Shown here: piece after piece, positions 1-21,319 of the stretch
Layout of the letters: each line of letters begins with the position of its first letter
How positions within the stretch are numbered: position 1 is the first letter of the stretch
IMG/VR virus record: IMGVR_UViG_3300031555_004779
Reading direction: 5' to 3' (one strand)
DNA: 64,000 nt
DNA from: a virus
Lineage: Duplodnaviria > Heunggongvirae > Uroviricota > Caudoviricetes
The notes under the pieces: model-generated
The model's database searches: none
Told to the model about the DNA's origin: nothing
Seen by the model: the letters and a program-made list of their open reading frames with translations, nothing else
Position numbers and translations under genes: made by a program

Positions 1-3000
1 AGTTAAGGTACTACCAAATGAACCATATTGAGTTATTAAATTTTCCGCATATATAGGCAAATCTTTTAATGGGTCAATAACACTCGCATCAACACCAATT
101 TCTTCTAATTGAGTAACTGCTTCTTCAACGCCTAAAGAAGAAGTAAGGTCAGCATCAGCGATAATTTTCTCTGCCTATGCTTTTAAATCACTGTCTTCTA
201 TATTAGCAAGACCAGTAATTATCTTAGTATAAGCATCTGCCATTGCCTATGCAGCTGCTGGGTCATCTTCACCAGCAATTTCTTCAACATATTCAGCATA
301 TTGATTTAATTTATGCTAAATTGCTGTAGAAATTCTATTAGTCGCACCAGCTGTTTCATCCACTGAAATATTTCCTTCTTCGTCAACCTAGCCATATAAT
401 TTACTAAGTTTTTCCCAACGGCCTCCAGCAGATAAACGTTCTAATTTTGCCTATGCTCTTTGTATAGATTCATCTTCAGTTTCAGTTGCCTAATTATAAT
501 GTTCAAGCGCTAAAGCCAATTCTTTGCTGTCAGAATTCGCAGCGACTCCAAGTAAATTAGCAACCTTAGTGGTAAATGTATTTTCATCTAACATGCCAAG
601 TTTTGCTTGTTCAATTAGTGAATTATACTTATCTACATTTTCACCTTCGGTTAGCATCTAAGCTAAAGATTCTGCCGTTGCCATGCGAACATCAGTTTTT
701 TCGGTTAGCGTAGCAGCGGCTTCTGCCTTAATAAAACCTTCATCAGTAAAAATATTTTCATTTACTTCGCGTGTAATTTTATAAGCATCATTCTCACCAG
801 AAGCAATAAAATCAGAAACAGCAGCCGCGATAACAACATCAGCCAAACCTTTTACATCATTAACGGCAGACTCACTATCTAAATTATATGACTATCCTAA
901 TCTGCTATAATTCTCTAGAGAAGTTAACTAAGCCTATTCTAAATTTCTTTTATCCTTTCTTGAATCTAAAGCTAACTAACTCTAATTACCAAAAAATTCA
1001 TTACGTTCTGCGTCTGTATATCCGGTAATTGCAGAGAAAATACTATCAAAAGTTTCTCTAGTTACACCAAAATTAGCATTATTAGCGGCTTCATTTCTTA
1101 TTAAACTTAATAACTCTGCTTCTGTTGTCGCCGCTTGAAAGCCAGTCAATGACTCCTGAGAAGCTTTTGATAAATCAAATAAAGTAGAATATTTTTCCCA
1201 TAATTTTAAATCTTCGTTATTTAAAGCCTATGAAAAATTCTTTATTTGTTCAATACTTAGTCCAGCGTCAGTAAGAGTTAAAATAGAATCAAGGAATCTG
1301 CCGCCTTCTGACCTATCAACAAGTGTTTCATAGCCATATTCTGCATTCGTTGCATAATAAGAACCGCCAAAAGCTTCTAGTAATGAAATCTATCCCCTAG
1401 ATAGTGTCTCTTCATCTAAACTTCCCTATTCTCTGAGAGCTCTAAAAAGGCTTAGCTATTCTTCTTGAGTTATTTTAAATTCCTTACCATCTTTATCCCA
1501 ATAAGAAAACCCTTCAGTAAGAAAATCCATCCAAGTATTTTCATTAGAAAATTCAGCTGTTTTAGCTTTTTCCTAAAAAGCATCCATGAATGGAGTAAGA
1601 GCTGCGTCCGCCGCTTTTTGCTATTCTTCATTTTCCTTAACCGCTGCTTCAGCAGCAATAATTTGCGCCGCGGCCGCTTCATAAGCAGCCTATGCAGCAG
1701 CTTGTCTAGCATTTGTTAATTCTGCTTCAGCAGCTATTACACTAATAATAGCATTGCCTGCGGCATCTACACCAGAAGTTAATTCTGGAAAATTACTAGC
1801 AAAAGCATTTTGAGCATCAATATAAGCCTATTGTGCTTCAAGACTATCGTATTGTTCAGATTCCAAACGTTTCAATTCATCTATAGAAGTCTATAGATTA
1901 CTTGCTCGTTCATTAGCTTTAGCTCGCTCTAAATTTTTCTCTTCGGCTTTTTCATTAGCTTTTTCCAAATCAAATTGAGCTTGCTCTAAATCATTAACAC
2001 CAGTAATTATCGCAGCTAAACCTGCCGCGGCGGCAGTTCCAATTGCTGCCACAGCACCTGCTATTGGATGAATGCTAGCTGCTATACTGGTAATCTAACC
2101 ACCAATTGAAGCCACATTACCAGCAGCAGTCATTTTTCTGCCTGCAACTATATCTTCAGTAGCAGTTTTTGCTCCAGCAACAGTCAAAGCAGAGCCGGCC
2201 ATTGTTAACACAACACCACCGACTTCGCCAATTTTTCCTGCTGTGTTCATTAGTTTTTCGTGCTTTTGTGCTTTTTGCTCTGCATCCAACTGATGCTAAT
2301 ATTCAGCTTCTAATCTTTCTATATTTTTTCTATTTTCGTTTTTACGTTTTTCTAAATCAGCAGATTCTTTATCTATTTCAGCACTTTTCTTTTTTATTTT
2401 CTACTATTCTTCTAATTCATTATTTATTTTATTTTCTAATTCTGCTCTTCTTTTTTGAGCATCATCAATCTGTGATTGATATCTCTAATATGCAGGTCCA
2501 GTTTCAACTACTCCTGCCTAACTTCTTTGGCTATTAGCAATTTCACGGTCTATCTAAGCTCTCTCTTGTTCAAAAGAAGCCATTCTCTTCTATGATTCTT
2601 GCATTTCGGCATTAACAGCTGTTTTTTTCTTATTAACTTCTGTATCGGCACTTTGCAAATCATCATGGAGCTTTCTTTCAGCTTTTACTTGTTCATGTAT
2701 CTATTGAGAACCAGTTAATTCTACAGCTAAAGGTTGCTAAGTTCCATCTTCCTCCAATTTAACTGGAACTGGCTTTTCTTCTCCAGATTGAGTGCCCGTA
2801 GTAGTAGTAGTAGTAAAAGCAGACTACCTCGTTGCTTCTTTGGTACCAAAAATTTTAGAAGCAAAACTACCAAGCACTCCTCCTTTACTCTAAGAAGCGC
2901 CTTTAGTAATCTTACCCATCTTACCAAAAAATCCATCAATCAAACCAGTGGTTAAACCTTTAATTCCCTTAATAGCCGACCCAAAACCTAATATAACATC

Positions 3001-5481
3001 TAGTTTTGGTAATTTATTAATACCCGCCAATAAATCATTAACAAAATCTAATAATCCTCCAATAAGTGGACCATTAACAATATCCATATAAAATTGTTGG
3101 AAATTAGTTTTAATATTATTCAATTTTGTATCTAATGATTCTAGAGTTTTACTATATTGCAGAAGTCCTGCATCTTCACTATTTTCTGCAGCACTAGCAA
3201 CTTCTTGAAGGCGTTCTGCATTAGAAACTAAAGCTAAGAAACGGGATTGTTGACGGTTGCCTGCAAAAATAGTAGCAATATAACGTTGAGTAACACTATC
3301 TAATGTATCCCATTTTCCTGCTAATTCAAAAATTACTTCATCAAAATCACGGAATTGGCCCTACGCATCTTTTAAAGAAATGCCTACAGATTTTAATGCA
3401 GTATCAACACGGTTATAATCTATATCTTCGCCTTCGCTATCTACTGTTAAACCTTTAGTCATTTCACCATAACGAGAAATGATAGATTTCATAGCAGAAC
3501 CAATATTCTGAGGACTTTCACGAGTAGCTTCTACCATGACGGCTAACATTGCTGTAGTATTTTCAAAACTACTACCAACAGAAGCAGCAGAAGAAGCTGT
3601 TTTGGACATAGCGGTTACTAATTCTTGAGTATCAGAGGCAGTAACGGCCGCTACCTTAGAATATACATCAGTAACATGAGCCGCGTCTGTCATCTCCATA
3701 TTGAAACCACGAATAGCGACTGTCATACCATCAGCGGCTTCTTTGTAATCCATGCCGGCAATACGAGCCATTTTTAATGTCTCAGTTGTAGCCGCCATAG
3801 TATCTAATTCATTTAAACCTTGTTGGAAATAAAGCTGAGAAACTTGATAAACACCTTGAGTTGTTACACCATACTATTTGGCAATACCCATATATTCATC
3901 AATTTTTCCCCATAAATCAGAAACACTATAATCAGTAACTACAGCGATTTCTGTCATTGCAGAATCGAGAGATTTTATATCAGCATAAGCACTGCGCAAG
4001 CCACTTTTTACCATTGTAATAACTTGCTGAGCACCCATCCAATGTTTTACACTAGATTTTAAATTATTTTTAAAACTATCTGCTTCAGCCTATGCTCTAG
4101 CCGCTTCCACCTCTCCTCTTCTTCTATCGTCAACTTCAGTCTAATAAACATTAGAAGCACGAGTGTTGTACTAACCAGTTGAAGCAATAATTTGATTCAA
4201 ACGATTAATAGTGCCTTCCTTTGCCTATTTATCAAGAAGTTCAATTTGCTTTTTCTAAGCTTCTATCTATGCATCAAAATGTCCGCTAACAGTTTCAGTG
4301 TGCTAATTAGAAATTGCCTATAATTCACTCTATAAAGCATTAGACAAATTCATTAACTAAGTAGCTTCGCTAATTAACTGTTGTAGTCTAGCAGATTCAG
4401 CTTGATAATTACTTGCCTAACTATTATAGGCATCAACAACACCTTTCGTTGATTCATATTTTGCAACAATGCTAGAATCGCTCTTTCCTGCTGCAGCCTA
4501 AGCACCACGAACTTGATTCTCTAAACCGTGTACACCTTTTCCTCCCTAACTTGGAGCGGCCATAAATTGTCCTAATTTTCCTTGTAAGGTAGTAACAATA
4601 GTTTTAGCATTCTACGTAGCAAAAGCATCAATTTCGGCAGGTGTTAGTTCCATCCACTGACCAACAATTTGTGCAAACTCTAACCCATCTCCAGCCTCTA
4701 ATGTTTGCTTGGTAATATTCTAAGCAAATAAATTACCATAATCAGCAATTACGTCTTCTTTCTTTCTAAAATCAGTTTTTACGCCGCCTAATTTATCTGC
4801 TACAGTTTTTTGTTTTTGTAATTTAATATAATTTTTATACTATTTTTCTAAATTTTCAAAATTGGCTGCTTCCATTGCGGCGGAAGCATTATTATTTTCG
4901 AAAGCTTGCTAATTAGCTTGTAAATCGGCTAATTCTTTACCAAGCGCTGCAATTTCACCCTGAGCTTTGGCAGCAGCTTTTCCTAAACTATTTACATTAG
5001 AAGATAAACTGGCTTCGCTAGAAAAACCGCCCTTTCCAGACGCAGCCATATATTTTGTTAATTGATCTTGAGATAAAACAGTAGATGCACTTTTATTTAT
5101 TTCTGCATTCTTTTCTCTCTAAATCTGTTTTAACATTTTTCTAGCTTCTGTCAGCTAAAGGGTTCCAAGCCCTAATGATTCAGCAGTTGAAGTACTTACT
5201 TTATACTTCATTTCTGCAAAAGCCTATGTAATTTTATCAATCTAAGTAGCAGATTGTTTTAAATCTTTTTCATTAAAAAGATTTTTTCCGAATGAAGATT
5301 TAGTTTTTCCTAAAGTTTTATCTATATTTCCGAAAGCTTTACTAAAACTTTTTTCTAAACCAGGACTTATATCAAGATCTGAAAAAGTCTACTGTAAACC
5401 ATTACTTAAAGACTTAATAACATCTACCTAATTTTCTAAATTCAATTTCGCTGCGACAGAAATCTCAATTGGTTTCGCCAT
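1..5481 (-). CDS. tail tape measure protein. The 3' part of the gene runs off the window start. The frame is continuous only if TAG is read as sense.
   Basis: ATG at 5479-5481 follows RBS AAAGGGAGTGAAAAGGAAT. Same-frame ORF pieces 3361-3798, 2890-3123, 2095-2289 and 658-846 all share one frame and are separated by TAG. Piece 3361-3798 carries a TP901-type tape-measure motif (MARIAGMDYKEAADGMTVAIRGFNM). Piece 2095-2289 has an Ala/Gly-rich hydrophobic segment typical of tape-measure proteins. Confidence 0.75.
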
Positions 5482-5510
5482 ATTCCTTTTCACTCCCTTT
5501 TTGTAAAAAA

Positions 5511-5540
5511 TAAGTGCTCCCAGAATGGGAGCACAACTTA
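5511..5540. terminator. GC-rich hairpin between the tape-measure gene and the upstream tail gene
   Basis: Inverted repeat TAAGTGCTCCCAGAATGGGAGCACAACTTA. Confidence 0.35.
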
Positions 5541-5541
5541 T

Positions 5542-6348
5542 TTAAATACCAAGAATATCATCATCTAGATAAAGCACTTCACACACAGTTGCTTCTCTAT
5601 CTCCTTGTGACTCCGGTATTGCAATTATATTAAAGGTAGACACAGCAGGGTCTGCCCTTTCTCCCATTCTCAAATTTATATTACTCACAACGCGGACTTT
5701 TGGCATACGGAGTAAACCTGTATGATATAGTCCTTCGTTTTCATCTTTCATTAAGAATGTGGCTTCAAGGGTATATAAATTAGTAAATCTTTCCCGAGCC
5801 ATTGAATAAAGTACCGTATCACCATTATGATAAAAGTAGTAATCACAACGTACAACTTCACCAGCATATTTCTTGTCAAAAATTACCTTTCTTCCTTCAA
5901 TAGATATAGGTTTAATTCTTTCTTGAAGATTATCTAAATCATAAATATAAAAGAATGCTTTTTTAAGTTTTAATTCAGGAGTATATTTTAAAACTACTTC
6001 ACCCTAATCTCCAATGATTAAATCTTCAACAAAGAACAATGGGTCATCAGGTTTCTTTTGTAACATATTAGCATTTAAAAGAAGATTAAAACTAGTAGCG
6101 TTTAATGTTCCATTTGTAAAACTAAACATCGTTTCTTTTCTATCTTCCCAAATTACACGAGGTTCATTTCCCCAGCCACCACGTGCCATAATAGGAGTTA
6201 CTTGTTCACTTAGCAAAGCAATTTGAATATTTTCAAAATACATTACAGGTTCGCCAGCTTCAAGTACTCTTTTCCCAAAAGCAGTTTCTTCACGAGTTTT
6301 TATACAAACTCTTTCTAAATCTTTTATTCCTAATTCCTATAAAATCAT
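5542..6348 (-). CDS. tail-associated protein. It is a paralog of the 6427-7284 product (shared ARGGWGNEP/AQGGWGNPK motif) and contains in-frame TAG.
   Basis: ORF pieces 5542-5802 and 6004-6243 share a frame. ATG at 6346-6348 follows GGAGGAAAAAA. The position between the major tail gene and the tape-measure gene suggests a tail chaperone or tube role. Confidence 0.4.
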
Positions 6349-6426
6349 TTTTTTCCTCCAAGATAAAAAAATAAAGGGAGCGGCGGACGTGCCGCACGCT
6401 CCCAAAGGAGAAAACTTTCGTATAAA

Positions 6427-7284
6427 TTAGTTATACTTAATTAGGCTCATCATGTTACCATCGTTATCACGAAGTACATTTAGAGTCATGTTGAAGGTAG
6501 AAGGATCGCCTTCAGCCTGCATGTTTAGAGTTACTTCAGATAGCATCTTAGCCTTGTTGATTACGAACTGGAAGGCTTCATCAGCACCGGTAGCTTCAGA
6601 ACGAATTAGAGCGTCACCAACTACACGATAGGTGCCAGGGAAAGTGTTGGGAGAAATAACGATTTCAGAAGCCTGAGAATTATTTTCGCGAGTTTCTTCC
6701 CAGAAGAAACGAATCTTGCGGGTACCTTCTTCCTCGGTTACAGTATAACCAATTACAGCGCCATCTAGACTATCAACGCCGTTCTTTACATTGCCACGTA
6801 CGCCATCCTTCATGTCGATGTATTGATAGGTGGTCATAGCCTCGGCGGGGAACTGAGCCTTGCCGTCAATAGTCTTACCGGCTTTCTTTTCATCAGTTTC
6901 AACGGGGAAAGCGATAGTATCGCCAGCCTTGAAGTTCTTTTCAGCAGTACGACGAACGATTACATATTCATCAGCAGCAGTCTTTCTGAACTGACCGCCC
7001 TGAATGATACGTAGCTCTTCCCAAGATACGACAGCATCTTCTAGAGTTACGTTAATATCCTTGCCGTAATCCCAAGTAACGAGCTTAGGATTGCCCCAGC
7101 CGCCCTGAGCAGATACGTTTTCAGCAGTGGTTTCAGTGGTAGAAACCTTTAGAGTGTCTAGATAAAGTACTACGTCACCCTCTTGAATGCCGTTGATTTC
7201 GTCATTAGCGAGAGCAAATAGAGAGACGTTAGCTACTTCCTTAATACCATAGCGTTCAAAAATATTTAGAGCCATGAGTAACAT
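6427..7284 (-). CDS. putative major tail (tube) protein
   Basis: Intact 285-aa ORF with RBS AAGGAGGATG, lying upstream of the chaperone-like gene and the tape-measure gene in the usual siphovirus gene order. Confidence 0.45.
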   Translation of the reverse strand: MLLMALNIFERYGIKEVANVSLFALANDEINGIQEGDVVLYLDTLKVSTTETTAENVSAQGGWGNPKLVTWDYGKDINVTLEDAVVSWEELRIIQGGQFRKTAADEYVIVRRTAEKNFKAGDTIAFPVETDEKKAGKTIDGKAQFPAEAMTTYQYIDMKDGVRGNVKNGVDSLDGAVIGYTVTEEEGTRKIRFFWEETRENNSQASEIVISPNTFPGTYRVVGDALIRSEATGADEAFQFVINKAKMLSEVTLNMQAEGDPSTFNMTLNVLRDNDGNMMSLIKYN

Positions 7285-7295
7285 CCTCCTTACTT

Positions 7296-8540
7296 GAATG
7301 TCATGTTTTTAATCCAATGAGAAAGCTTTTCTTTGCTTATCTTTGCACCGGCCATAGCGGCCTGTGAATTTATATTAAACTCTTCATACCAGCCCATCCG
7401 CTTTAGCTAGTCTTGAAAAGCATAATATGTCATATATTGTGTATCTATTAATCTATATGCTCCATTTGTTCCAATCGGAATAGAAGCGATAAGGTCAGTA
7501 AGCTATACTTTACTTTCACCTTTATTTTTTGTCTGCTTTTGCTTAGCAATTTCACGCTTTTTTCGGCCTTCAATTAATTGAATCTTGATACGTCTTGCAT
7601 CTGGAGAATCGCTATCTTTAAACTCTATTCTATCTGAAGTATAGTCTTCCATAGCACAAACAGCACCAATATAACTCTAAAACTCATAGAAATTATCTTT
7701 ATTCAAAATTCGCTTCTCAGTTGGATCGCCCAAAACGATAGAGGAGTTATTCATTAATATCGTACCGCGATCTTGCGTAAATAATTCTAAAGCACGAAGC
7801 AAAACTTGTTTATGTGTCGGTTCCATAGAAACCAACATTAATAGATACTCAAAATCCGTCAGTTTATCTAAGAGTTTTTTCATCTCTCTATCTTCAGCTG
7901 GCGGTTTGGAGGTAAGCAATACTGAAATACACTAATAAAATTCTTCTAAACCAATAGAGGCGACTGTATCCATTAGTGGAGAATATACAAGACAAATATC
8001 TTTATATATTAGTGGCTTACCATATAATAATTTTAATTTATCTCCATCAGTTAAATTCATTTATACTATAATACATTGTATAGCCGCCCATTTGTGGAGA
8101 TAATGTTAGAGGAACGCTGTGAGAAAACTAAAGTTTCCCAATGCCCTCAATTCGCTGTTGATTAAACATCTAGTCTATCTCCTACATTAATAAGTAGGGA
8201 CGCAAGTTATTTTCATCAAGCAACCATTCCTCATAAGGGCAAACAATTTCAAAGCGTAAAGTACATAATTTGAAATCGTCATTATTTGGATTGACAATAT
8301 ATTTGTCAAAAACTACAACGATAAAAGAACATTCCTTATCATCATTTTCTGGTATCTTTGGAACGATGATAAGCTATTTATTTATTAAATCTGTACCGTC
8401 TACATTTGCAAGCTCTTCACTAAAAGGACTTGTATTTTGATATTTTAATAAACGACACAAACGCTAATTTTCAGTAAGTTTATTAAGTATAGAAAATAAA
8501 TTATCGCCCATTATAGCGAATCTGCGTTGTGTAGCCGCCA
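7296..8540 (-). CDS. tail/virion structural protein, TAG-containing, about 414 codons
   Basis: The frame runs from ATG at 8538-8540 (RBS AGGAGGTATAAT) to TAA at 7296-7298. TAG codons occur at 7677-7679 and elsewhere. Confidence 0.4.
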
Positions 8541-8542
8541 TA

Positions 8543-9616
8543 TTATACCTCCTGCCACAAAGAAATAACCTTTATTTCTTTTTCATATTTTACTCCATCA
8601 TAAATTGCTGATAAAGTAAAAGTGCCAAGTTTATTCTTTTTATTTGTAATTACTTTACCTACATTACCATTAGTTTCAACAGTAGCTAGTTCTTCATTTG
8701 AACTTTTGAATTTTATATCTCCATTCAAATTTGGAATTGTTAATTTATATTCAGCAGTTTTAGTTATACGAATATAATCATCGCCACTAATAAAACCAGT
8801 TTGTTTATTTTGTTTGCCTATAGAAACTAAAATAGTTTTCATAGCATTTTCATAAGAAAGAATTACCATAGTTTCTCCAGATTCATTGGCAATAATTTCA
8901 CCATTCTCATTAACAATAAAACCACTGCCCGGCATTATCTAAGGAGCGCCGCTATTTTCTACAATAAGCCCATCTTTAGAAATAGTATACTCTGGTCGGA
9001 AAATTTCTCCAACAGAAATATACATTTTATCTGGAGCATTAATAGACCAAACTTGTTTTTTATCAGCATTTGCTAATTGTTCATACAAATCATCTGTAAG
9101 CTCATTAACTTTTGTTTCAGTAAATGACATATAAATAATACCAGGAACTGAAACTTTATCATAATCAACGAGCCGCCAAGCTTCATCAAAAACAATGATT
9201 TCTGTATTCTTTCTTATTTCCTAATAAGGCATAATAATTTCAATAAACTTGTTTGGCTAAGGAGTAATCAATTCATTCCAAGTTCTAAAATTTTCTTTAA
9301 TTTTAGATTCCTAAGAACCAATAATATGACATAAAGAAGAATGAAGATTACCTTCTTCATCTACCCAATTTATTTTATGATTACACTTAATAATCTCAAA
9401 TTTATCATGAGGTTGATAAGAAGAAATAGTTTTATACCAAATTAACCAATTTGAATTATCCCATTCAATAATATTACCAGCATTTAACTCCACACACGTA
9501 TCAACTAATAATTTTAAAGATGTTTCTAATTCATTTTGCTTATGTGTAAGAATTACACCATCAAATACTTTTTCTCCACTTTTCAACCCGCGAACAGTAT
9601 GTTCGCTATAACGCAA
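8543..9616 (-). CDS. structural protein with a C-terminal Ig-like (BIG2-type) domain, TAG-containing
   Basis: Pieces 9311-9616, 8939-9130 and 8543-8935 are co-frame, joined by TAG at 8939-8941 and at 9221-9223. The C-terminus TLSAIYDGVKYEKEIKV is a typical Ig-like decoration domain. Confidence 0.4.
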
Positions 9617-9701
9617 ATACTATTTAAATTCACGTTTACCAGATTTTAAAGCTCTTTCTTGCGGAGTGATACCCAAATGACCCGCGCGCTTACGATATAC
9701 T

Positions 9702-9977
9702 TCATAATACTCGCTCACCTTTAATCAACTCCTCAACAAGATTCATACACTCAAAAATAGTTTTGCGGAAATATTCATAATTTAAATATTTTAACTCCGA
9801 AAGCTTACCAATGAGTGGCCAATAATTAATTGTTCTTTCGGCTCTGGCCAAACCATGTAATTCAATTAATATTGTATCTAAAAATTTTTCCCAAGCTCCT
9901 TCCTTTTCTCTTTCACAGAGTAAACCAAATAAACGACCTTTTAATTTATGATAAAATCCTTCTTTTGACTCAATCAT
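9702..9977 (-). CDS. hypothetical protein (possible head-tail connector). The N-terminus may extend upstream through TAG.
   Basis: ORF track entry; its position in the morphogenesis module. Confidence 0.3.
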   Translation of the reverse strand: MIESKEGFYHKLKGRLFGLLCEREKEGAWEKFLDTILIELHGLARAERTINYWPLIGKLSELKYLNYEYFRKTIFECMNLVEELIKGERVL

Positions 9978-10204
9978 TTCTTACCAGCCAACTAAGTAAA
10001 GATTTTATTAGGACGATAATTAACTGACCGACTATATCTATCTAACATAAAACGACAATCATCTCGTACCTATACCTAAGTTTTGTTTAATTGATTAAGG
10101 AAATTAGCTTGTGAAAAATCTTTGTCAGAATATAATTGTCTAATATTATCCCAAGTTGCTATTGCTCGGTTTAACCATTCAAGTTTCATAAAAGAACCAA
10201 GAAT

Positions 10205-10426
10205 CTATTTTTCATCATTCCCAAGTTCAGAAACGAATACTTTTCCAATTGGATCATATTCTAATGAAACACGAGGATATCTAAAATGAAAAATCGCCGC
10301 ATCTAACAATTTGTTCCAATCTTTTTCAACAATATCTAAATATTCTCTTTCCATCCATTCATCGGCTTCAACCTTAGAAAGGAAGACATCATAAACATCT
10401 TGTAGTGTTGTTGCCACAAGAATCAC
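10205..10426 (-). CDS. hypothetical protein. The ORF ends at a TAG (10205-10207), so the true 3' end probably lies further downstream.
   Basis: ORF track entry; its terminal codon is TAG. Confidence 0.25.
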   Translation of the reverse strand: MILVATTLQDVYDVFLSKVEADEWMEREYLDIVEKDWNKLLDAAIFHFRYPRVSLEYDPIGKVFVSELGNDEK

Positions 10427-10863
10427 TCCTTACGAGCCATCGCCATGACGTTTAGAATATCTACATTGGTATATTTCTTAATAATATTACAACGACCAGG
10501 ATCGGCAATAGAAAGTTCAACTGCTGTAGCAACGATTTCATCCTGAAGAGCAGGAGAAGCATTCTTTAATGCATCCGCTAATTCTTTTACAGTTTTATCC
10601 GTTAAAAGTTCTTTAACATTAATTTCTGCACCAGTTTTAGTTTCTACTTCAATATGTTCCACACCAGCGTCATTTGTTTCATCGTAAATAACGCTAATAA
10701 AACCCCACTTAACCATATTTTCGCAACCATGGTCATAAATAAACTCTACAAATACATCTTCGGGCATCTGACGTTCCTGCTTAGGACGAAGTTCAGTGCG
10801 GAATCTTACATTGGGAAGATTTACTGTAATTACAGAGTTACTAACATTTTTAATCTTATTCAT
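10423..10863 (-). CDS. hypothetical protein (head completion or connector candidate)
   Basis: Intact 146-aa ORF immediately downstream of the major capsid gene. Confidence 0.35.
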   Translation of the reverse strand: MNKIKNVSNSVITVNLPNVRFRTELRPKQERQMPEDVFVEFIYDHGCENMVKWGFISVIYDETNDAGVEHIEVETKTGAEINVKELLTDKTVKELADALKNASPALQDEIVATAVELSIADPGRCNIIKKYTNVDILNVMAMARKE

Positions 10864-10895
10864 ACGCCTTTTATCTCCTTTCGTTTTGTATAATC

Positions 10896-10921
10896 CGGGT
10901 GGGGTTTTCGCCCCACCCGGT
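10896..10921. other. stable GC hairpin CCGGGTGGGGTTTTCGCCCCACCCGG directly after the capsid gene. It may be an attenuator or RNA-stability element.
   Basis: 11-bp perfect stem with no flanking U-run. Confidence 0.3.
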
Positions 10922-10929
10922 ATCAGTAA

Positions 10930-11967
10930 TTAGTCAATAAACTGTTGATTATCCCAGCCGGGAGCGTCAATAGAAGCATTTAGATAAATGCCCCAATAAT
11001 GAGGTTCAGCGGCTAGACCAATGCCCATCTTCTTATAGAACTGGATTTCAATAGACCAGTCTTCGTTCTGGACATACTTCATATGAGTGTCACCAACTAA
11101 AGCAACCTTAACTAGCTTTTCCTTACCAGCGGGTAGAACATAAGCAAAGCCAGGATGCCATACCATCTTGGAGTTGGTTTCATCGGTGAAAGAGTTGGGC
11201 ATTACAACAACAGGAGCGCCAGCGAAGCGACCGATGTAGCCCTGATTACGGAAATCGCGAATATCTTCATCGCTCATCTTGTAGTTCTGGCCATCGGTGA
11301 TAACATTAACCATGGTAGCAGCAAACTGAGAAGAGCAGTAGATTACGGGATCGCCATAAGCACCAACAGTATTAATTAGAGCGGCCATCTTAGCGCCGTC
11401 AAAGCCATTAGCTAGAACACGGTTAGCAGCAGGACGGCCAGCCTGATTCCAGGTGTGTAGTAAGCAGCCCTGAATTTCTTCAAATACGCGATCAACTAGA
11501 CCTTCAACGAGAATTTCGTGTAGCTCGGTTAGATCTTCCTCGCCATCGAGATAACGTTCCCAGTCCATGATAGCGCCGCCACCAAAGGCGAAGGAGCTGA
11601 CTTCAAAAGTCTCACGGTCTAGACGGAAGGTTTCATATACGCCAGCAGCAGTAGCACGAGTAACATAAGTCTTACCACGGTTACGGCCTAGCTTACGCTT
11701 GAAAATAATCTTATCGTTATTGCCATACTGCTTTACTTCGCAGAAAGGAGCAATAATATCCATTACCTTACGAGGTACGATTTCATCAGCATCCTGCTCT
11801 AGAATAGCAAATACTTCAGGAGCATTCTTCTGTAGTAGGTGATAGTTACCAGCTAGCTTCTTTACTTCGTCGCGAAGAGCAGCCTTATAATCAACGTTCT
11901 GCCCCTCAAATTCGGCAGGGATATTACGGCCGCGGGCACAGTCTAATAATTGCTTTAAAGTCTTCAT
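10930..11967 (-). CDS. major capsid protein (HK97-fold candidate)
   Basis: 345 aa, strong RBS, located between the scaffold and connector genes and followed by a hairpin. Only the size and position are typical of a major capsid protein. Confidence 0.55.
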   Translation of the reverse strand: MKTLKQLLDCARGRNIPAEFEGQNVDYKAALRDEVKKLAGNYHLLQKNAPEVFAILEQDADEIVPRKVMDIIAPFCEVKQYGNNDKIIFKRKLGRNRGKTYVTRATAAGVYETFRLDRETFEVSSFAFGGGAIMDWERYLDGEEDLTELHEILVEGLVDRVFEEIQGCLLHTWNQAGRPAANRVLANGFDGAKMAALINTVGAYGDPVIYCSSQFAATMVNVITDGQNYKMSDEDIRDFRNQGYIGRFAGAPVVVMPNSFTDETNSKMVWHPGFAYVLPAGKEKLVKVALVGDTHMKYVQNEDWSIEIQFYKKMGIGLAAEPHYWGIYLNASIDAPGWDNQQFID

Positions 11968-11985
11968 CTTACATTACCTCCAACA

Positions 11986-12528
11986 TTAAGCCTTTACCAT
12001 GTGATAATGGAGAGCAGGCTCGCCATTGGGCATAGTCCAGACGCGACGAACGCGAGCGAAAACGCCACTTTCGGGCATGGTAGCAGTAACCTGAGGACGG
12101 CCATTGCCAACAACAGGAATTAGATATAGGGGAGCATCCTTTAGAGCAGTAGCGATAGCTTCCATATCGGCATATTCGCCCATATCAAAGCAGTTAGAAG
12201 TGAATACATCACCATCTTCTAGTTCGCCAATACGAGGATACTGACCTTCAACAGCAACGCCACGGAAAGTCTTTAGACCTTCTAGATAACGTCCCCATTC
12301 TTTTTCAGTGGTATAAACAATACCAATCTTGCGAGTGTTCTCAGAAATTAACTTATATTCGCCGTTTGCACGTTCGGCGTCAACCCACATACCATTTTCA
12401 GCGGGTGCTTCAGCAGTGAACTCAGCAGATAGGGGTAGCTGAGAACCGATCATACCAGTCTTGAGGAATCCGGCACGATTAATTTCTAGCTGAGCATATT
12501 GCTTTACAGGAAACTTAGCCATAATCAA
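11986..12528 (-). CDS. head-associated protein (decoration or accessory)
   Basis: 180-aa ORF between the scaffold and capsid genes. Confidence 0.3.
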   Translation of the reverse strand: MIMAKFPVKQYAQLEINRAGFLKTGMIGSQLPLSAEFTAEAPAENGMWVDAERANGEYKLISENTRKIGIVYTTEKEWGRYLEGLKTFRGVAVEGQYPRIGELEDGDVFTSNCFDMGEYADMEAIATALKDAPLYLIPVVGNGRPQVTATMPESGVFARVRRVWTMPNGEPALHYHMVKA

Positions 12529-12541
12529 TTACCTCCAGTAA

Positions 12542-13276
12542 TTACCTTTTATACTTGTTTAAAATTCGTGCTAATGCACTAGGTTCTTCCTGAGGAAGTT
12601 GAGGCACACGAATTTCTTCGTTCTGCTCTCTTGCCATAGAGAAGCTAGTATACTCTAAAGCGAAACGAGTATTCATTTCGTCAATAGTCATAGTTTCTTT
12701 TGCTTCCTCAATTTGTGATACGACATCGGCGGGCAAACGACCAGTGAACTGCTTAATTAAACGTTCCTTCTCTTCAGTTTCGTACTTATTGATAAGTTCA
12801 TGCTGTGAAGAAATCGTGGCGTCTTTTTCGTCAACGTCTTTTTTATATTGCGCACTCTGTTCTTTGAGTGCCTCATACTCACTCATAAGAGTATTCTTTT
12901 CACTCTCAAGAGTTTCGTATTGAGTGCGTAAAGTATTTAGCTCCTCGCTTAGAGCTTCATATTGAGCTTGTAGTTCATTTAGCTTTGCGGCATAATCAAC
13001 TTCAGGCTCGGCGGGAACGCTAGGCTCTTCGGTAGCAGGTTCTTCTTCAGTAGCGGATTCCTCAGCAGGCTGTTCTTCAACAACGGGCTGTTCTTCTTCC
13101 GCAGGCTGTTCTTCTGCAGCGGGAGCACTTTCTTCTTCGGCAACTGGAGGAACTACTTCTTCCTCAGCGGCAGGAGCAACAGGCTGTTCCTGAATCTGTT
13201 CTTCAACAATTGCTTCTTGATTTTCTAACTCCATAGCGTTCATACCTCCATTTTCATAATAATTTTTTATAGCCAA
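12542..13276 (-). CDS. scaffolding protein
   Basis: 244 aa. It is very E/A/Q/P-rich with coiled-coil-type heptads (EEQPAEE repeats) and lies upstream of the capsid gene. Confidence 0.5.
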   Translation of the reverse strand: MAIKNYYENGGMNAMELENQEAIVEEQIQEQPVAPAAEEEVVPPVAEEESAPAAEEQPAEEEQPVVEEQPAEESATEEEPATEEPSVPAEPEVDYAAKLNELQAQYEALSEELNTLRTQYETLESEKNTLMSEYEALKEQSAQYKKDVDEKDATISSQHELINKYETEEKERLIKQFTGRLPADVVSQIEEAKETMTIDEMNTRFALEYTSFSMAREQNEEIRVPQLPQEEPSALARILNKYKR

Positions 13277-13405
13277 AGAAAATTCTTTATAACTATCATC
13301 TTCAGTAGAAAAGAATGCAGCACCCTAAAAACAAGGTGGATGCTTGTCGCCTAAAATACATAGCCCGGCCATTACGCCATCGCTATATACATAAGCATAT
13401 TCTTC

Positions 13406-13771
13406 CTATCCTTCAAAACATACATTCATCCATTCACCTTTAATTGTATCTGGATCAATTTCCATGCTTTGTTTTTTACTAAAAATATTTTCAGCTTCTT
13501 TCCAATACTTAGCCCAAATAATTACATCATAGGTGGCATAGTTACGAATAACGCCATCAGCGTCAGTATTCTTTTCCCAAGTTAAAGAACCTGGAATTAC
13601 ATAGCCGTAACTTTTTGCTTCTTCGTGACTTTCATGGCCTTTAAAATCATTTATCTCTATATCATAAGTACCAATGATAGGCTTTGAATAAGCACTTAAA
13701 GCAAATTTTTCTGCAAACTTATCAGTAATATAACTTCCGTTACGGTTTAGATGTTTGTAGAATACACGCAC
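13406..13771 (-). CDS. hypothetical protein (head morphogenesis region)
   Basis: 121-aa ORF. Confidence 0.3.
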   Translation of the reverse strand: MRVFYKHLNRNGSYITDKFAEKFALSAYSKPIIGTYDIEINDFKGHESHEEAKSYGYVIPGSLTWEKNTDADGVIRNYATYDVIIWAKYWKEAENIFSKKQSMEIDPDTIKGEWMNVCFEG

Positions 13772-13883
13772 CTTACCTGTACGAAGCTCTGGGTCTGAAG
13801 CAATAGAAGAAAAACTAGAAGCAATAAATTCTGCTTCAAACTAAAAAGGAATTGGTTTAATGTCTTTCAACTTACTTCACTCC

Positions 13884-15167
13884 TTAGGTTGCTCCGTCTC
13901 TATTCCGTACCGTTTTATCAGAACGTTGAGTAATAGATTTTTCAGGACGGCCACCTTCATTTGATAAGTCTGGAGAAGATTTAGTCGTACTGGAAGATTT
14001 TTCTGATGAATTAGATTTTTTTTCTTCGTCTCCAGGAGTAGTATAAGATGATTGCAAAGGCACCATCAATTCGGTCATCTTCCATACGTTATTTTCAAAA
14101 TGAGACATTTGTAGTAAATCTGTCATTTCTATACCGATTGCACTAGCTACCAGATTCTTTGGATAACCGTATTGTGCTATCTTGAGATACATGTCAACAT
14201 CTTCGGATTGGAAAATAGTGGTCGTTGGGAAGAAAGAAATCGTAAAATAAAAATTTTCATTCTTTGCTTTATTTTTCAACCAAGCATTTAACCAAACTTG
14301 ATATTGTTTACTCCAAGCAAACATGATAGAAATATCTTTCTTAATAGAATAAGTTAAAGCAGTTGAACCACTTTCTGGATTAAAGATTTCACCAGCAATA
14401 CCTAATTCATCATAAACACTATCTACATACTTAGTAATACGATTTGAAGAAGCAGTAGATGAAGATTCTTCATCTTGAATATTTTCAAGCGATATTTCTG
14501 CGTATGTAGTTAGAACATTTACTGTATCTTCTTCAGCAAGCATATGACAAGTGCCTTGATGGAGCGCTTCGGCTTCTTCCAAAGAAAAAAGCAACTCACC
14601 ATCAGTTTTGTCAATGGGTAGCTTTTGAATAAGTAATTTATTCAAAGCTTTAGAGTCTTTCTTTGTTTCACGGTCGCGGGCAGTCTGTAAGTCGGCGACA
14701 GCACCACTCGCGGATACAAGGGGCGGCAAGTAGTCTTTGTTAAAACTGAAACATATACCCCCGTCTATTGGTGGAATTTCTACCCAATAAGAAATTGGAG
14801 AAAGAGACCTTTGATTGGCTTTCGTTTGTACATATTTTGGGAACAATGATAAAATTGCTTTCCGCTCAGCTTCAGAAGTAGTAACCATACTAAAATAAGT
14901 ACAGTCTAATTCAAGAACAGGCAAGCCATTTTCATCATTAAAACGAGAGCGACAATACTTGGCTGGCAAAGAATAAAATACAGGACGTCCTTGTTCTGTT
15001 TCTTTTAACAAACCAAAATAGACACCTTCTTGAAAGATGACTTTATTGATTTGCGGCAATATATAGTCAAGGTTCATAGATTTAACATATTTCGCCATTT
15101 CCTTATATTGCTTCTTAATTTTTTTTACATTAGGCTTATTGTCTAAGTCATAATGTGGAACGAGCAT
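13884..15167 (-). CDS. portal protein
   Basis: 427 aa, immediately downstream of the large terminase gene, with a Ser/Thr/Lys-rich C-terminal tail. Confidence 0.5.
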   Translation of the reverse strand: MLVPHYDLDNKPNVKKIKKQYKEMAKYVKSMNLDYILPQINKVIFQEGVYFGLLKETEQGRPVFYSLPAKYCRSRFNDENGLPVLELDCTYFSMVTTSEAERKAILSLFPKYVQTKANQRSLSPISYWVEIPPIDGGICFSFNKDYLPPLVSASGAVADLQTARDRETKKDSKALNKLLIQKLPIDKTDGELLFSLEEAEALHQGTCHMLAEEDTVNVLTTYAEISLENIQDEESSSTASSNRITKYVDSVYDELGIAGEIFNPESGSTALTYSIKKDISIMFAWSKQYQVWLNAWLKNKAKNENFYFTISFFPTTTIFQSEDVDMYLKIAQYGYPKNLVASAIGIEMTDLLQMSHFENNVWKMTELMVPLQSSYTTPGDEEKKSNSSEKSSSTTKSSPDLSNEGGRPEKSITQRSDKTVRNRDGAT

Positions 15168-15197
15168 ATAAGCATAATTTAAAAGACTTGAATAATA

Positions 15198-17231
15198 CTA
15201 TTTTGCACGGTCATAAATACCGCTAAAACGAGAAAAGAAACGAGACAAATCACGAATGGCTTCAACATCGCCACTGGCAAGAATCTCATTTATTTCCTCT
15301 TTTGTAAAGCCTTCACTACTTATAGCATTATAAGCCCGTCCAAAACGATTGCGATAACTAGCATCATTCTGCGGTGTGCGGATTACACTGCGAGCAAAGT
15401 TCTTAAATGCCTCAATATCGCGTTCTTGTCTTGGCATAATTATCACCTGCTCTTATCTTTTACCGGGTGAATAAAACATCATTTGCCCTAAGCCGCCTTT
15501 CTTGCGTTTGCGGATTGCTTTATCTTCGTGGTACTTTATTCTATAAAGTCCATAAGCAATAGCGGAAACACGGTCTTTATTTATGCGAGTAGAAATCTAT
15601 TCTACTGCTAACTAATTAGCGGCTCCTGTGGGTCTTAATTTGAGGTTATTTATCTCATCTATAAGTCGCGAAGTCATTATATATGGTAAAAGAAATTTTT
15701 CTCTTTGATACAAATTCATTCGTTGTCCTTTTTTGGTTGATAACAATTTTTCTTTCGCTACACGTTCATTGGCAAGAAGGGCAACATTTCCACTGTTAAA
15801 TTGAACATAAAGATTAGAATAAATTTCGTTGTTTAATTGAGCAGTGGCTTTTAAATTATATACAGTTCCTTTTTCTCCGCGAGGAAGAGGATAATCTTCA
15901 TCATTGAAAACATAAAGTGGCCCATAAAGTTGTCCATGCGGTCCAACAGAAGGAAGAACCAATTCGTCAACAAGACCATGACCAACGCCATTACCGTCAA
16001 CAACTATTTCGCGGGGTTGGAAAAGTTCGTTTAGTTCTTTGATACGGCCAGCCTATTGTGGCAGCATCATTTTAGTAAGGTTTTCAGTATATACTACTCG
16101 TTTCTTCCATGCGCTATCATTGGGATAAACCTTAATCACCATAATGGAAGAATCGTTATTACCTGTGCGCGCAACGTCAACAGACATGATATAAAAAGCA
16201 TCTGGATGTTTTGCTTCGGGTTTTGCTTTGCGTTCGGCATGAAGCAATTTACGAGAAGCAATAAGTTTGTTATTATTAAACCAACTATCATTTGATGAAC
16301 CAGTCCAAATACTCATGCTTTCACGAGCGAAGCCATCTTCACTAAAGGTGGAAGACATCTTCTGGTCAGTAATGGTTTTCTTATCAAATAAACCATAGCG
16401 CAAAGGAAGTTCATAACTCGCGCCGCAGATAAAATAATCTTCTGGGTCAATAACACCCTAAATAGTAAGTTCTACTAAGCGCTCATATGCAAAAGTGTTC
16501 TTACTGCCGGCAGAAGTAATATATGTTTGTTGACTATGGGGTTCTGTTGGATTTGTTCCACCGGAAAGACATAGCCGGGGTATGTTCATCATGGGGATGA
16601 TTACTTCGGAAAGTAAAGTACCATCTACTAGTGCTGCTTCTTCAACCACACCGCCAGTAGCACGTTGACCGCGGCTGGAGGCAGAAAGAGCAAGAATGTG
16701 GAAAATGCTACCGTTCTTAAATTCAAGTTCAATGTAGTCAGTAGACATTTTGGTACTTTTTAGTTCGGCTTTAAGCAATGGATACCAAGACCAAATTTCT
16801 TCAAGTTTCTGACGAGTAATATCAAGAGAAGCCTTTTTAAACTGCGAAACTACGAAACGTTTTGATTTTGGTAAGAACATACAAATAAGATACTAGGATA
16901 GTATTGCTAAGAAGGATTTAGATGTTGCGCGAGTAAACGTGCCAAAGAAATAACGATAGCGTATCATTGCACGAAGAATAATACGCTAATAGTAATAAAA
17001 TTCTATTGGGCAATCTTTTGTTTTTATAAGTTCAAGAAATAGGTCTGGATACCGCATGAAATAGCGGCAGTAGTTTTGACAAAGTTTTTCGTTTTTTTCT
17101 AAAAAATCTTCAGTAAGAACATAACCTTTTTCAACTGGTATACCTTCGCGCAACGTATTCTTATTTACGCGAAAAATATTAACCGGGTTGGAATTATTAG
17201 TTAAGGGCATCGTCATCGTCATAGGAATCAC
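15198..17231 (-). CDS. terminase large subunit, TAG-recoded
   Basis: Pieces 16986-17231, 16458-16880, 16053-16403, 15612-15962 and 15198-15446 are all in one frame. I translated the junctions by hand and found TAG at 16986-16988 and at 16893-16895. A deviant Walker A (GTFTRQTSKS, compare T4 gp17 SRQLGKT) sits near residue 100. An RNaseH-like nuclease start (IMSVDVARTG) follows in the C-terminal half. Confidence 0.65.
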
Positions 17232-18171
17232 CCTCGTCTTTATCTTCGTAGGTTATGTTGGCAAGAATTTCTTCTTCACTATCTCCAAGACTGTAATCAC
17301 CCGAGGCTTCTAGCCGTTCGGCAACTTCTAGTTGTTTGCGGCGGTCTTCTACTTGGTCGCCAATGGAGGCTTCACCCTGAACAAGACGTTTTAGGTAATT
17401 TTGCATTGACTGCATGGTGAAGTCTACACTATCTTGTGGTTCATCATGCCAATTGGGTTTCCAACCACGTTTTTCAAGCCAACCAAATAATTCGCCTACT
17501 GAGTCAAAGTCGCCAAGATTGCGGCTGTTCTTTGGTTCAAAACCTTCGGCTTTGATGATGTTGTGGTACATAGCCATTTCGTTTTTAGCGTCTAAGCCAG
17601 CGCGCAACTTTTGGTTGATGATTAGACCAACTTCACACAAACGTTTGGCGTCATCGCGTTGAGTGGCGGTAACTAGATTTTGTGTGGCAAGCAAATCATT
17701 ATACAGATCTTCAAGATAATGATAATCTTCTACGGTGCGGTCAACCTCACTGGGCCATTTGCGCCGCATTCGCATCATGAATGCTTCGGTAGCGCCATCA
17801 AGGAAGTCGGCAAGCGTGCCAAGGTCTTCTTCTTCGCGCCATTGTTCGTTTATGGTTTTCCAATCTAAGTTGAAGTTGTAGGTTGCGCGGCGCTCATCTA
17901 TCATTTTTGCATATAGGTGTAATGTGCGCTCTTTTGCTGATTTATAAAATTTGGTCCATTGGTCTATTAGAAATGGCCAATCAAGCCACTACATTAATTT
18001 GTCTACGGCCGCGAGGTCATCGGCGGGCACCATACGTTCAAGGCAATCAATACAATAAATGCTGCGGCCACCCGGATGGAATTGAGAGGGCGTGGCAAGA
18101 AATTGGGACTCGCCACAATCTTTTTTACATTTTGGACATTTGCGGTGTCGTTCTATAGTTTCAAGTGCCAT
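17197..18171 (-). CDS. Zn-ribbon DNA-binding protein, candidate terminase small subunit, with one in-frame TAG
   Basis: Pieces 17989-18171 and 17197-17904 are co-frame. I translated the junction by hand and found a single TAG at 17989-17991. The N-terminus has a CPKC..CIDC ribbon and the C-terminus is acidic. Confidence 0.35.
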
Positions 18172-19493
18172 TAGATCTTCACCTCTATTTTCTTTGTGGC
18201 TCGCTTGTTGCGGTTATCACGTTGAATCTTCTGACAATCTTTACACTGGGAGCAATAGCCTGTTTTCTTGTCTTTTGCGCGAGCAAAATATAGAGGGTCA
18301 CGAGGAAGGCTGCGGCCGCACCGAGAACATTTAATTGTGCCGCGATGGCCAGAGGCTACTTCGGATTCAAGGCGTAGACGTTTTGCAGTGTTGGCGAGTT
18401 TGCGCGGAATTACGTTACGGGCCATATTGCGCAATTGGGTGTCGCTAAGAGTGACATCTTCGGCTTCGAGTGCTTTTTGAATTACGAAGAGATTGCGATG
18501 GGCAACACGTTGTTCAAGAACAAACTACTCTACGTCGGTTAGGTTAGATTCTTCTATTAAACGTTCCAGGTCCCAGCATATTTGCCGCATGTCGGATTCA
18601 GGATGTGCGTAACAGCGTTTGAGCAAGCTAACGTAGTTGTCAAGTAGAGCTAAAATATGGGTGGGGTCTTCATAGTCAAGTTTGTTGTCAGATAATTTCC
18701 AATATATGTGGCCGGTAGCATAATTACGCGGCGCATCTTGTAGTAGAGGTTGTTCGTGGTCGCCGGTATGGGGATGACGTTTGCGGGCGCACCATTCTTC
18801 ACTGGGAAGCCATAAGCCGGTGTCGTGGAGGAAGTCGATTTTGCTATGGGAAGCGGGTTTTACATTAAAGAAATGAAGTGTTGGATTATAAACATCCTTA
18901 ATGTAATATTGTTGGCGACGAAGGTCAATTACAAAGTGACCAAGTTTGTATAACTAATATTTTGATATTGGATGCTCCAGCACCCATTCGTTAGGGGTTT
19001 CGTGGCCGCGATACATACGCAGGCGTTCTTCCCATTTGTCGATGCTGGCCCACAGTTCGCGCATGAAGGGAATTTCATTGCCTTCGTTGTCAAAGTCGTC
19101 ACCACGTTCAAGAATTGAGCCATCTTCGGCGTATTTGGTGCGGCGGATTTCTTGTCTATAAACTTTATAGGGGGATTTGTTTTCTGGCCCTACAGGTTTG
19201 GCAGTGTTTTCTATGTCTTGCGCCACCATTGGGTCTTCCAGCAGGCCGTCAAGGGATTCGTTTGATTCGGCTTTCGTGGTGAAGCTATTGTAGCGGCGTT
19301 TAGGCTAGGATATTTCTTTTGTATCTACTGCGCTTAGTAGGGTATCGTCTTTGCCAAACAAAATGTAGTCAGCCATTTGTTCCAAATCGGTTTGGTTTGG
19401 GTCGGTGTCGAGCTCGTCGATAATTTCACAAATGGCATCACAACGTTCGTCGGCGTAGATGATGTCGTAGTTGAGACTGTATTTTTTTTTCAT
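18171..19493 (-). CDS. hypothetical protein with C-terminal CxxC Zn-ribbons, TAG-containing
   Basis: Pieces 19305-19493, 18954-19229 and 18171-18434 are co-frame. It is the first gene after the leftward promoter. Confidence 0.3.
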
Positions 19494-19577
19494 AGGTTAT
19501 CTTGGGATTCACCTCTTTTTTAAATTTGCGGATGTGGTCTACATAAGAGGTATTTACGATTTTTATTTTATAGGAAA

Positions 19578-19606
19578 ATTTTACCAAAAAATTAAAATTT
19601 TGTCAA
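19578..19606 (-). promoter_or_regulatory. leftward sigma70-type promoter for the morphogenesis module
   Basis: On the minus strand: TTGACA, 17-nt spacer, TAAAAT. Confidence 0.4.
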
Positions 19607-21318: not shown

Positions 21319-21319
21319 A

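Follow-up and report, generated by a model that had tools for sequence, protein, structure and literature searches.

Phages that read the amber codon TAG as glutamine (Gln) have been predicted bioinformatically in several earlier studies, and for crAss-like phages this decoding was proven by mass spectrometry (PMC9523058). In a wide survey of such phages, the Agate clade has genomes of 154 ± 27 kb with several recoded modules and a mixture of codes 11, 15 and 4, and a suppressor transfer RNA (tRNA) with the anticodon CUA is frequent but not universal, being found in about 40% of the genomes that recode TAG (bioRxiv 10.1101/2021.08.26.457843). Here, we analyzed 64,000 nucleotides (hereafter the window) of the Caudoviricetes virus record IMGVR_UViG_3300031555_004779, in which most of the virion, packaging and fibre genes are very likely written in genetic code 15, with UAG decoded as glutamine. 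By its reading frames, the correspondence of TAG to Gln in relatives, its terminators and the bias of TAG towards late genes, the window belongs to the code-15 (TAG = Gln) phages. The use of TAG as Gln in its late genes is a further case of a phenomenon known from gut phages, in a new lineage.

Among the clades of that survey, Agate fits best, as judged by its description. In Agate and other code-15 gut phages, like in the window, TAG is a sense codon in structural genes and the other modules are compatible with the standard code. Large genomes are common to both (167-174 kb in the relatives found here versus 154 ± 27 kb), as are recoded modules spread over the genome (the window has two), a mixture of recoded and non-recoded members, and suppressor tRNAs present in some members only. 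Agate phages have a Firmicutes host, and the Bacillota host proposed for the window phage is deduced from terminase relatives only. The crAss-like and Lak phages (PMC7886860, PMC9523058) share the same reassignment and the same late-gene bias but have unrelated virion modules (podovirus, megaphage) and Bacteroidota hosts.

The minus strand of positions 1-19,496 is tiled by 16 contiguous frames, which are closed only by TAA or TGA and contain 93 in-frame TAG codons. A second set of TAG-using frames on the plus strand (40,009-60,487) contains 21 more. An earlier note, made from the letters of this DNA, had proposed that the fragmented virion genes are single frames split by TAG; in agreement with this, all called late genes together (12,630 codons) include 114 in-frame TAG. 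Stops other than TAG were looked for within the fused frames, and neither TAA nor TGA occurred. When TAG was set to sense, the longest open reading frames (ORFs) grew from 659 amino acids (aa) to 2,330 and 1,847 aa, and no comparable lengthening was obtained with TGA or TAA as sense. The fraction of the first 19.5 kb covered by ORFs of at least 100 aa was 0.59 under code 11, 0.99 with TAG as sense and 0.67 with TGA as sense. Based on ORF length and coverage under each code, TGA and TAA are ruled out as the reassigned codon. In the tape-measure gene, the coding frame (1-5541, minus strand) is 1,847 codons long and is interrupted by 58 TAG but by neither TAA nor TGA, and the other five frames of this segment have 67-201 TAA plus TGA each.

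The 68 called genes end in TAA (58) or TGA (10), and none ends in TAG. The earlier note had stated that genes bearing TAG all stop at TAA. In this form the statement failed, as 4 of the 29 late genes stop at TGA, including the TAG-bearing genes 8047-8541 and 9974-10417; what stands is the weaker form, that TAG terminates none of the called genes (0/68). Its claim that every fibre gene is fragmented by TAG is also wrong, as 44784-46535 (583 aa) and 53548-53907 are free of TAG. The span given there (1-19493) takes in one TAG-using block only, and a second one (40057-60487, plus strand) lies outside it.

Protein family profiles pass over the TAG sites of the fused ORFs without a break. Profile phrog_2 of the PHROG database (terminase) gives a single match over residues 72-566 of the fused large terminase, which takes in all six of its TAG sites, phrog_2739 (portal) matches residues 25-515 across the TAG of the fused portal protein (5.5e-74), and the Pfam family PF01041 (DegT_DnrJ_EryC1) covers residues 17-358 of the aminotransferase in one match that spans four TAG sites (1.7e-109). 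All coordinates quoted in the earlier note proved correct. Of the two terminase junctions that had been translated by hand, 16986-16988 is codon 88 and 16893-16895 is codon 119 of the frame that runs from stop to stop on the minus strand (15453-17252), and gene 17197-18171 indeed contains one in-frame TAG. TAG is therefore a sense codon in the late genes, standing in frame within conserved domains. In an identical public contig with standard-code gene calls, the same region is broken into products of 35-145 aa. The TAG codons are not sequencing errors, because the same sequence is present at 99.9-100% identity in 13 contigs from 10 metagenome samples. The samples with this phage include JGI 3300032167, 3300029705, 3300028242, 3300019378, 3300018427, 3300024303 and 3300024272 and ENA ERZ27248457 and ERZ27248370.

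The early block contains no TAG in 4,070 codons, versus 114 in the 12,630 codons of the late genes (Fisher p = 1.8e-14). Since TAG was found neither inside the early genes nor as their terminator, its use is confined to late genes and avoided early, as the earlier note had described. The plus-strand ORFs of this block that end in TAG all look non-coding, and one of them is the antisense of a true minus-strand gene for a nucleoside 2-deoxyribosyltransferase (34190-34603); only one other early-block gene, 38083-38562, lies on the minus strand. The division into early and late genes, which had been assumed, received independent backing from promoter content. Between 19.5 and 39.5 kb, 92 sigma-70-like sites were counted versus 40 ± 6 in shuffles, among them about 35 near-consensus TTGACA-17-TGnTAYAAT promoters on the coding strand, while both TAG-using blocks were at background (68 versus 57 and 67 versus 57 expected).

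Based on published work on code-15 phages and their switch model (bioRxiv 10.1101/2021.08.26.457843; also PMC7886860), we infer that a temporal code switch may operate in this phage. The early block would be expressed by the host RNA polymerase and by standard-code translation of the host. A phage tRNA(CUA), presumably derived from tRNA-Gln and encoded outside the window, would accumulate, upon which ribosomes would read through UAG and the late genes would be completed. It is improbable that there is no switch and that the host itself decodes UAG, the phage being written in the host code and the early lack of TAG being an ordinary codon bias in genes with a high G+C content at third codon positions (GC3). 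The TAG share of Gln codons does drop with rising GC3 across late genes (23 genes, Spearman -0.71, p = 1.4e-4), the early genes have the highest GC3, and the window is without a suppressor tRNA; but at the late CAA:TAG ratio of about 2:1, the 23 early CAA codons should be accompanied by about 11 TAG, and none is seen. Against a UAG-decoding host there is also the tRNA(CUA) of the closest relative (see below), which would be pointless if the host already had one, as well as the absence of any gene terminating at TAG. Furthermore, in 5 of the 22 lineage members examined, the long tail-gene ORFs are free of in-frame TAG, and we know of no described bacterium with UAG = Gln.

To determine the amino acid encoded by TAG, relatives were fetched from IMG/VR via the terminase, and each TAG of the window was mapped to the aligned codon. 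In the six loci with 65-71% terminase identity (L005-L010), 124 TAG positions stand opposite a standard codon, and 52% of these codons are Gln. In the same comparison, Gln is found opposite 46% of the CAA/CAG codons of the window and opposite at most 4% of its Lys, Glu, Trp, Tyr, Leu and Ser codons. In a likelihood comparison of residues, Gln comes first in the close relatives, with a lead of more than 140 nats. It is again first, by 13 nats, in the distant loci, where Gln stands opposite 20% of the TAGs and opposite 21.5% of the true Gln codons. When all eleven relative loci are taken together, the Gln codons opposite TAG are CAA in 45 cases and CAG in 34; with CAA the more frequent, the signal is therefore not merely a one-step TAG/CAG mutation. 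In the reverse direction, 16 of the 26 in-frame TAGs of L009 itself stand opposite Gln codons of the window. TAG and CAA/CAG are interchangeable among these relatives. Two arguments of the earlier note were borne out as well. The TAG at residue 234 of the DegT aminotransferase (motif SRLDEI-Q-AG), for which a conserved EIQAAxG had been proposed, corresponds to Q in all four distinct solved homologues with alignments shown, and the TAG of a fibre repeat (56033-56035, ...GCT ACC GCA TAG GGT...) stands where the copy at 55673 has CAA (GCG CAA GGT). The codon comparison, the DegT residue and the fibre repeat agree, so that the Gln identity of TAG is strongly supported at the sequence level.

A suppressor tRNA was sought in the window and beyond. 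ARAGORN in default, intron and relaxed modes and Rfam at the gathering threshold and at E up to 5 found three tRNAs only, none of them tRNA(CUA). No tRNA was found in the flanks of the window, which exact-protein look-ups extended by 1.8 kb to the left and 0.8 kb to the right, or in the 10 kb downstream of the tail genes in 22 relatives, and the exact 60-mer of the right end of the window had no match in viral and metagenome collections. We then scanned IMG/VR with a pattern of the anticodon arm and T-loop common to the two phAss-1 suppressors (GGTCTCTAAAACC...GGTTCRAWTCC) and obtained at least 120 loci. Among the pattern matches listed, three loci (L164, L060 and L135) are on contigs of known relatives. 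L164 shares a 174-kb contig, syntenic with the window, with L005, whose terminase is 69% identical. It carries an array of 21 tRNAs, the second gene of which is a 98-nt tRNA(CUA) with the acceptor pairs U1-A72, G2-C71 and G3-C70, G73 as the discriminator, an extra arm of 7 bp and a CCA end encoded in the gene. In L060 and L135, which are tape-measure relatives, tRNA(CUA) is located near the homologue of fibre gene 56949-58478, about 500 nt downstream of it in the former and about 2.3 kb from it in the latter. The U1-A72/G73 acceptor is a hallmark of bacterial tRNA-Gln; that of the L164 and L173 suppressors is the same as in the tRNA-Gln(UUG) genes of the phage tRNA arrays L098 and L173. Because the closest large relative and two family contigs encode tRNA(CUA), a UAG suppressor is present in the lineage, and we infer that the phage of the window likewise carries a Gln-type one.

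The scan also revealed a recurrent class of tRNA(CUA) of 84-98 nt whose variable region contains an additional hairpin (loop CTCTGAAG-like); in some members, this goes together with a tRNA-Gln-type acceptor stem. About 47 of 128 CUA tRNAs among the matches listed were of this long form. Just upstream of the suppressor tRNA array, L164 has a TAG-containing gene (L164:3-1091, plus strand) that by eye resembles a SpoIID/LytB-type cell-wall enzyme and may be a lysis gene.

A reading of UAG as pyrrolysine, Tyr, Glu, Lys, Leu, Ser or Trp instead of Gln is very improbable. ARAGORN labels CUA tRNAs as 'Pyl', from the anticodon alone, and no pylS- or pylBCD-type genes were seen among the window proteins scanned. 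Together with the Gln-like TAG sites and the Gln-like acceptor stem of the tRNA(CUA) of relatives, this led us to reject pyrrolysine decoding. The long variable arm of the suppressors in relatives, as in Leu, Ser and Tyr tRNAs, could favour one of these residues, and K/R stands opposite DegT residue 69. However, in close relatives His, Thr, Glu and Lys all trail Gln by more than 140 nats, and Gln is first in the distant loci too; Trp and Tyr align to Gln in 0-1% of cases in the close relatives, and the TAGs of these relatives face no Trp or Tyr codon of the window. The acceptor stem shared by the L164 and L173 suppressors and the tRNA-Gln(UUG) of arrays L098 and L173 also speaks for Gln. As for Glu, many Bacillota make Gln-tRNA via Glu-tRNA, and incomplete amidation would give this residue.

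Decay of the element into pseudogenes, or an assembly or sequencing artefact, has next to no probability as the source of the gene fragments and is rejected: strings of short fragments do result from standard-code gene callers, but the frames are broken by TAG alone (114 versus 0 TAA/TGA), independent assemblies carry the identical sequence, and diverged relatives have TAG in the same genes at other positions, with the protein conserved across them.

It should be noted that several points weigh against the decoding of UAG as Gln by a phage-encoded suppressor. Within the 64-kb window, there is no gene for a tRNA(CUA), a release factor or an aminoacyl-tRNA synthetase. The suppressors of relatives have an unusually long extra arm, and their charging identity is deduced from the acceptor stem only. 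The amino acid assignment rests on substitution patterns, where the single transition between TAG and CAG inflates Gln matches. Several TAG sites of the DegT gene align to K/R or to variable residues and not to Q.

The contrast in TAG use is not simply one between early and late genes, since five virion genes are also free of TAG in both the window and relatives. These genes, on the minus strand, encode the tail tube (6427), the capsid-like YonB (10930) and three neighbours (9702, 10423 and 11986), and their homologues are TAG-free in every relative locus holding one (six diverged loci). Taken together, the TAG-free late genes have 65 Gln codons and 0 TAG (p = 7e-9 versus the TAG share of other late genes). 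In relatives, the portal, terminase and tape-measure genes have TAG in every locus holding them, and the completion genes have it in most; gene 12542 has three TAG in the window and none in any relative. Codon usage follows a similar division. Among the TAG-bearing genes, GC3 is about 0.15-0.3 and the preferred codons are CAA, AAA and TTA; among the early genes, GC3 is about 0.5-0.6 with a preference for CAG, AAG and CTG; and the TAG-free virion genes, at a GC3 of about 0.35-0.4, prefer CAG and AAG but not CTG. Next to TAG itself, ATA (16-fold) and TTA (12-fold) are the most strongly enriched codons in the TAG-using late genes relative to the early genes, and CTG is depleted about 15-fold. This ATA- and TTA-rich usage of the late genes could be served by the tRNAs that the phage itself expresses early. 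Of these, the one with the CAU anticodon, called Met by ARAGORN, could instead be an Ile2 tRNA reading ATA; such tRNAs, carrying lysidine, share the CAU anticodon in the gene.

One tentative and rather unlikely explanation is that the number of TAG codons acts as a graded expression dial, in which each UAG would multiply the yield by a suppression efficiency below 1 and thereby set protein amounts. This proposal arises because the five virion genes, taken to include those of high-copy proteins, have no TAG, the portal and terminase genes have few, and the tape-measure gene has 58; only a few copies of a tape measure are needed per virion. Should suppression efficiency lie behind the exclusion of TAG, the exclusion would be relevant to the control of virion protein amounts in these phages. 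The lack of recoded codons in a capsid gene was pointed out once previously, in one crAss-like phage (bioRxiv 10.64898/2026.08.21.746148). The preprint bioRxiv 10.1101/2021.08.26.457843 by Borges et al., in the text of which 'major capsid protein' and 'highly expressed' do not occur, probably does not describe the TAG-free virion genes and their link to GC3. Three points go somewhat beyond the literature that we read, namely the absence of TAG from the genes of the capsid and tail-tube region across relatives, the tight coupling of TAG use to a codon usage rich in A/T at third positions, and the long-arm Gln-type suppressors.

Since the genomes of relatives are 167-174 kb in size, the window is probably a 64-kb part of the genome, about 170 kb in full, of a large siphovirus of the Bacillota type. 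Its structural module includes the SPbeta-type families YonB (capsid), YonD_N and YomU_Tube. By tblastn, the nearest cultured relatives of the terminase are YonF-type proteins of Bacillota phages (Geobacillus E3, Enterococcus, Bacillus and Lactococcus 949-like) with at most 40% identity, and a Bacillota host is suggested only by the hosts of such cultured phages. A terminase scan of 185,579 bacterial and archaeal genomes gave no match and hence no prophage or host clue, a megablast search of 1-20 kb against GenBank phages gave no match, and FolD and the tape-measure C-terminus as queries for relatives found nothing.

SPbeta and its relatives (Geobacillus E3, Lactococcus 949, Brevibacillus Sundance) resemble the window in YonB, YonD, YomU, the YonF-type terminase and large genomes. 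They differ in that their code is apparently standard, because their terminases are annotated as single intact genes, and in a terminase identity of at most 40%. Another similar phage is phAss-1 (proposed Phassvirus, OQ749652; Babkin et al. 2023, PMC10607447), a siphovirus whose tape measure is also very long (3,149 aa), with TAG = Gln in the terminase, portal, tape-measure and fibre genes. Of its tRNA-Sup(CUA) genes, one shares the long extra arm of the suppressors of our relatives, and, like in the window, no dedicated aminoacyl-tRNA synthetase was found. On the other hand, the two terminases are only 32.7% identical, megablast gave no nucleotide match, the phAss-1 suppressors adjoin NrdD, and phAss-1 has a different genome layout, a human gut origin and a size of 136 kb. 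Given the 80-86% nucleotide identity shared by Phassvirus members, the terminase value and the lack of a megablast match exclude the window from Phassvirus. With the window, the recoded phages gain a lineage whose structural genes are of SPbeta type and whose tape measure is giant.

The C-terminus of the tape measure is shared by 22 relatives, of which 15 show heavy recoding, two contain just 2-4 in-frame TAG, and five have none in long tail-gene ORFs. This mixture of codes (15 recoded, 5 TAG-free) makes the group a good one for studying the origin of a code change. Four loci with 35-41% identical terminases (L011, L012, L014 and L015) have 1-4 in-frame TAG in conserved alignments, opposite Leu/Tyr of the window, which could represent sparse or incipient recoding; L013 has no internal in-frame TAG. 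In L009 and L010, inserts of 1.2-2.5 kb break the terminase gene (L009:11041-12278; L010:10888-13390), and the homologue of 8543-9721 is also interrupted by an insert (L009, about 19.2-20.2 kb). The window copies of both genes are uninterrupted. One ORF of the inserts resembles by eye a GIY-YIG homing endonuclease, which suggests that these inserts are introns.

The features of the window, together with the long-arm suppressor genes of relatives, are listed in the table below.

Table. Coordinates and TAG content of genes and tRNAs in the 64,000-nt window, with long-arm tRNA(CUA) genes of other loci
Feature	Position	Strand	Remarks
Tape-measure protein, N-terminal 1,827 codons	1-5481	-	58 TAG, 0 TAA/TGA; gene continues past left window end
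Virion structural protein	5542-6348	-	2 TAG; phrog_2729 over residues 10-254, one match
Tail-tube-like protein (YomU_Tube)	6427-7275	-	0 TAG, GC3 0.40; relatives also TAG-free
Head/tail completion gene	7290-8060	-	4 TAG
Head/tail completion gene	8047-8541	-	5 TAG, stop TGA
Head/tail completion gene	8543-9721	-	5 TAG
Head/tail completion gene	9702-9977	-	0 TAG
Head/tail completion gene	9974-10417	-	4 TAG, stop TGA
TAG-free cluster member	10423-10863	-	CAG preferred, higher GC3
Major-capsid-like YonB	10930-11967	-	PF27364 YonB; TAG-free, CAG-preferring
TAG-free cluster member	11986-12522	-	CAG preferred, higher GC3
YonD-like (scaffold-like) gene	12542-13843	-	Fused over 2-3 TAG; standard code gives YonD_N and 230-aa fragments
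Portal protein	13884-15437	-	1 TAG, residue 80; phrog_2739
Large terminase	15453-17222	-	6 TAG: residues 79, 110, 255, 390, 537, 542; phrog_2
Gene upstream of terminase	17197-18171	-	1 TAG
Second gene upstream of terminase	18171-19493	-	3 TAG; C-terminal part matches family annotated sigma factor
Early block, about 30 called genes	20096-39438	+	0 TAG in 4,070 codons, stops TAA/TGA, GC3 about 0.5-0.6
tRNA, anticodon CAU	30421-30497	+	ARAGORN (called Met), Rfam
tRNA-Leu, anticodon UAA (reads TTA)	30640-30723	+	ARAGORN, Rfam
tRNA-Lys, anticodon UUU (reads AAA)	30795-30870	+	ARAGORN, Rfam
Second TAG-using block, tail-fibre and related genes	40057-59313	+	Gene by gene below
Fibre-block gene	40057-40815	+	1 TAG
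Fibre-block gene	42565-43263	+	1 TAG
Fibre-block gene	43308-44756	+	1 TAG
Fibre-block gene, 583 aa	44784-46535	+	0 TAG
Fibre-block protein, 2,307 aa	46610-53533	+	7 TAG
Fibre-block gene	53548-53907	+	0 TAG
Fibre gene with repeat	54050-56869	+	2 TAG
Fibre gene	56949-58478	+	3 TAG
Fibre-block gene	58736-59077	+	1 TAG
Fibre-block gene	59113-59313	+	2 TAG
DegT/DnrJ/EryC1 sugar aminotransferase	59402-60487	+	4 TAG: residues 36, 69, 234, 326
Further TAG-free block begins	60641-64000	+	0 TAG in 881 codons; FolD-like gene 61220-61999
Long-arm tRNA(CUA) genes	L164:1968-2065; L173:3304-3398; L060:1423-1507; L135:5384-5472; L023:12445-12532		Pattern scan

In the tape-measure gene, the Pfam family PhageMin_Tail matches the fragment at 3361-3798 of the window, and the ORF is uninterrupted through all 2,444 nt of L024. 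The homologue in the closest relative (L031:608-12730) has 4,041 aa, other family members have 3,000-4,400 aa, and tape measures of about 4,000 aa in relatives contain 54-72 TAG. At the usual 0.15 nm per residue, such a protein would correspond to a tail of about 600 nm. Within the TAG-free cluster 10423-12522, phrog_4088 was matched. For the two genes upstream of the terminase (17197-19493), there are matches to phrog_3314 and phrog_5767 and none to Pfam.

The sequence of the window needs annotation with translation table 15, as under the standard code its terminase, its fibres and its tape measure fall apart into dozens of 'hypothetical proteins'. Successive pieces of terminase 15453-17222 are matched by phrog_15503, phrog_24618 and phrog_26582, three PHROGs listed with 'unknown function', which are probably families made from TAG-truncated fragments of recoded phages. 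Judging by these, truncated fragments of recoded genes may already sit in reference families.

The early block (19500-39499) is organized as a string of small genes, most with their own extended -10 promoter, and it includes many hairpin terminators. In the fibre block, the product of 46610-53533 begins with an N-terminus like that of the remaining fibre genes and also has a weakly CotH-like region and, at its C-terminus, DUF6273. The end of this block is flanked by auxiliary metabolic genes, namely the DegT aminotransferase gene with its four TAG and then a TAG-free gene (61220-61999, plus strand) for a FolD-like methylene-tetrahydrofolate dehydrogenase/cyclohydrolase.

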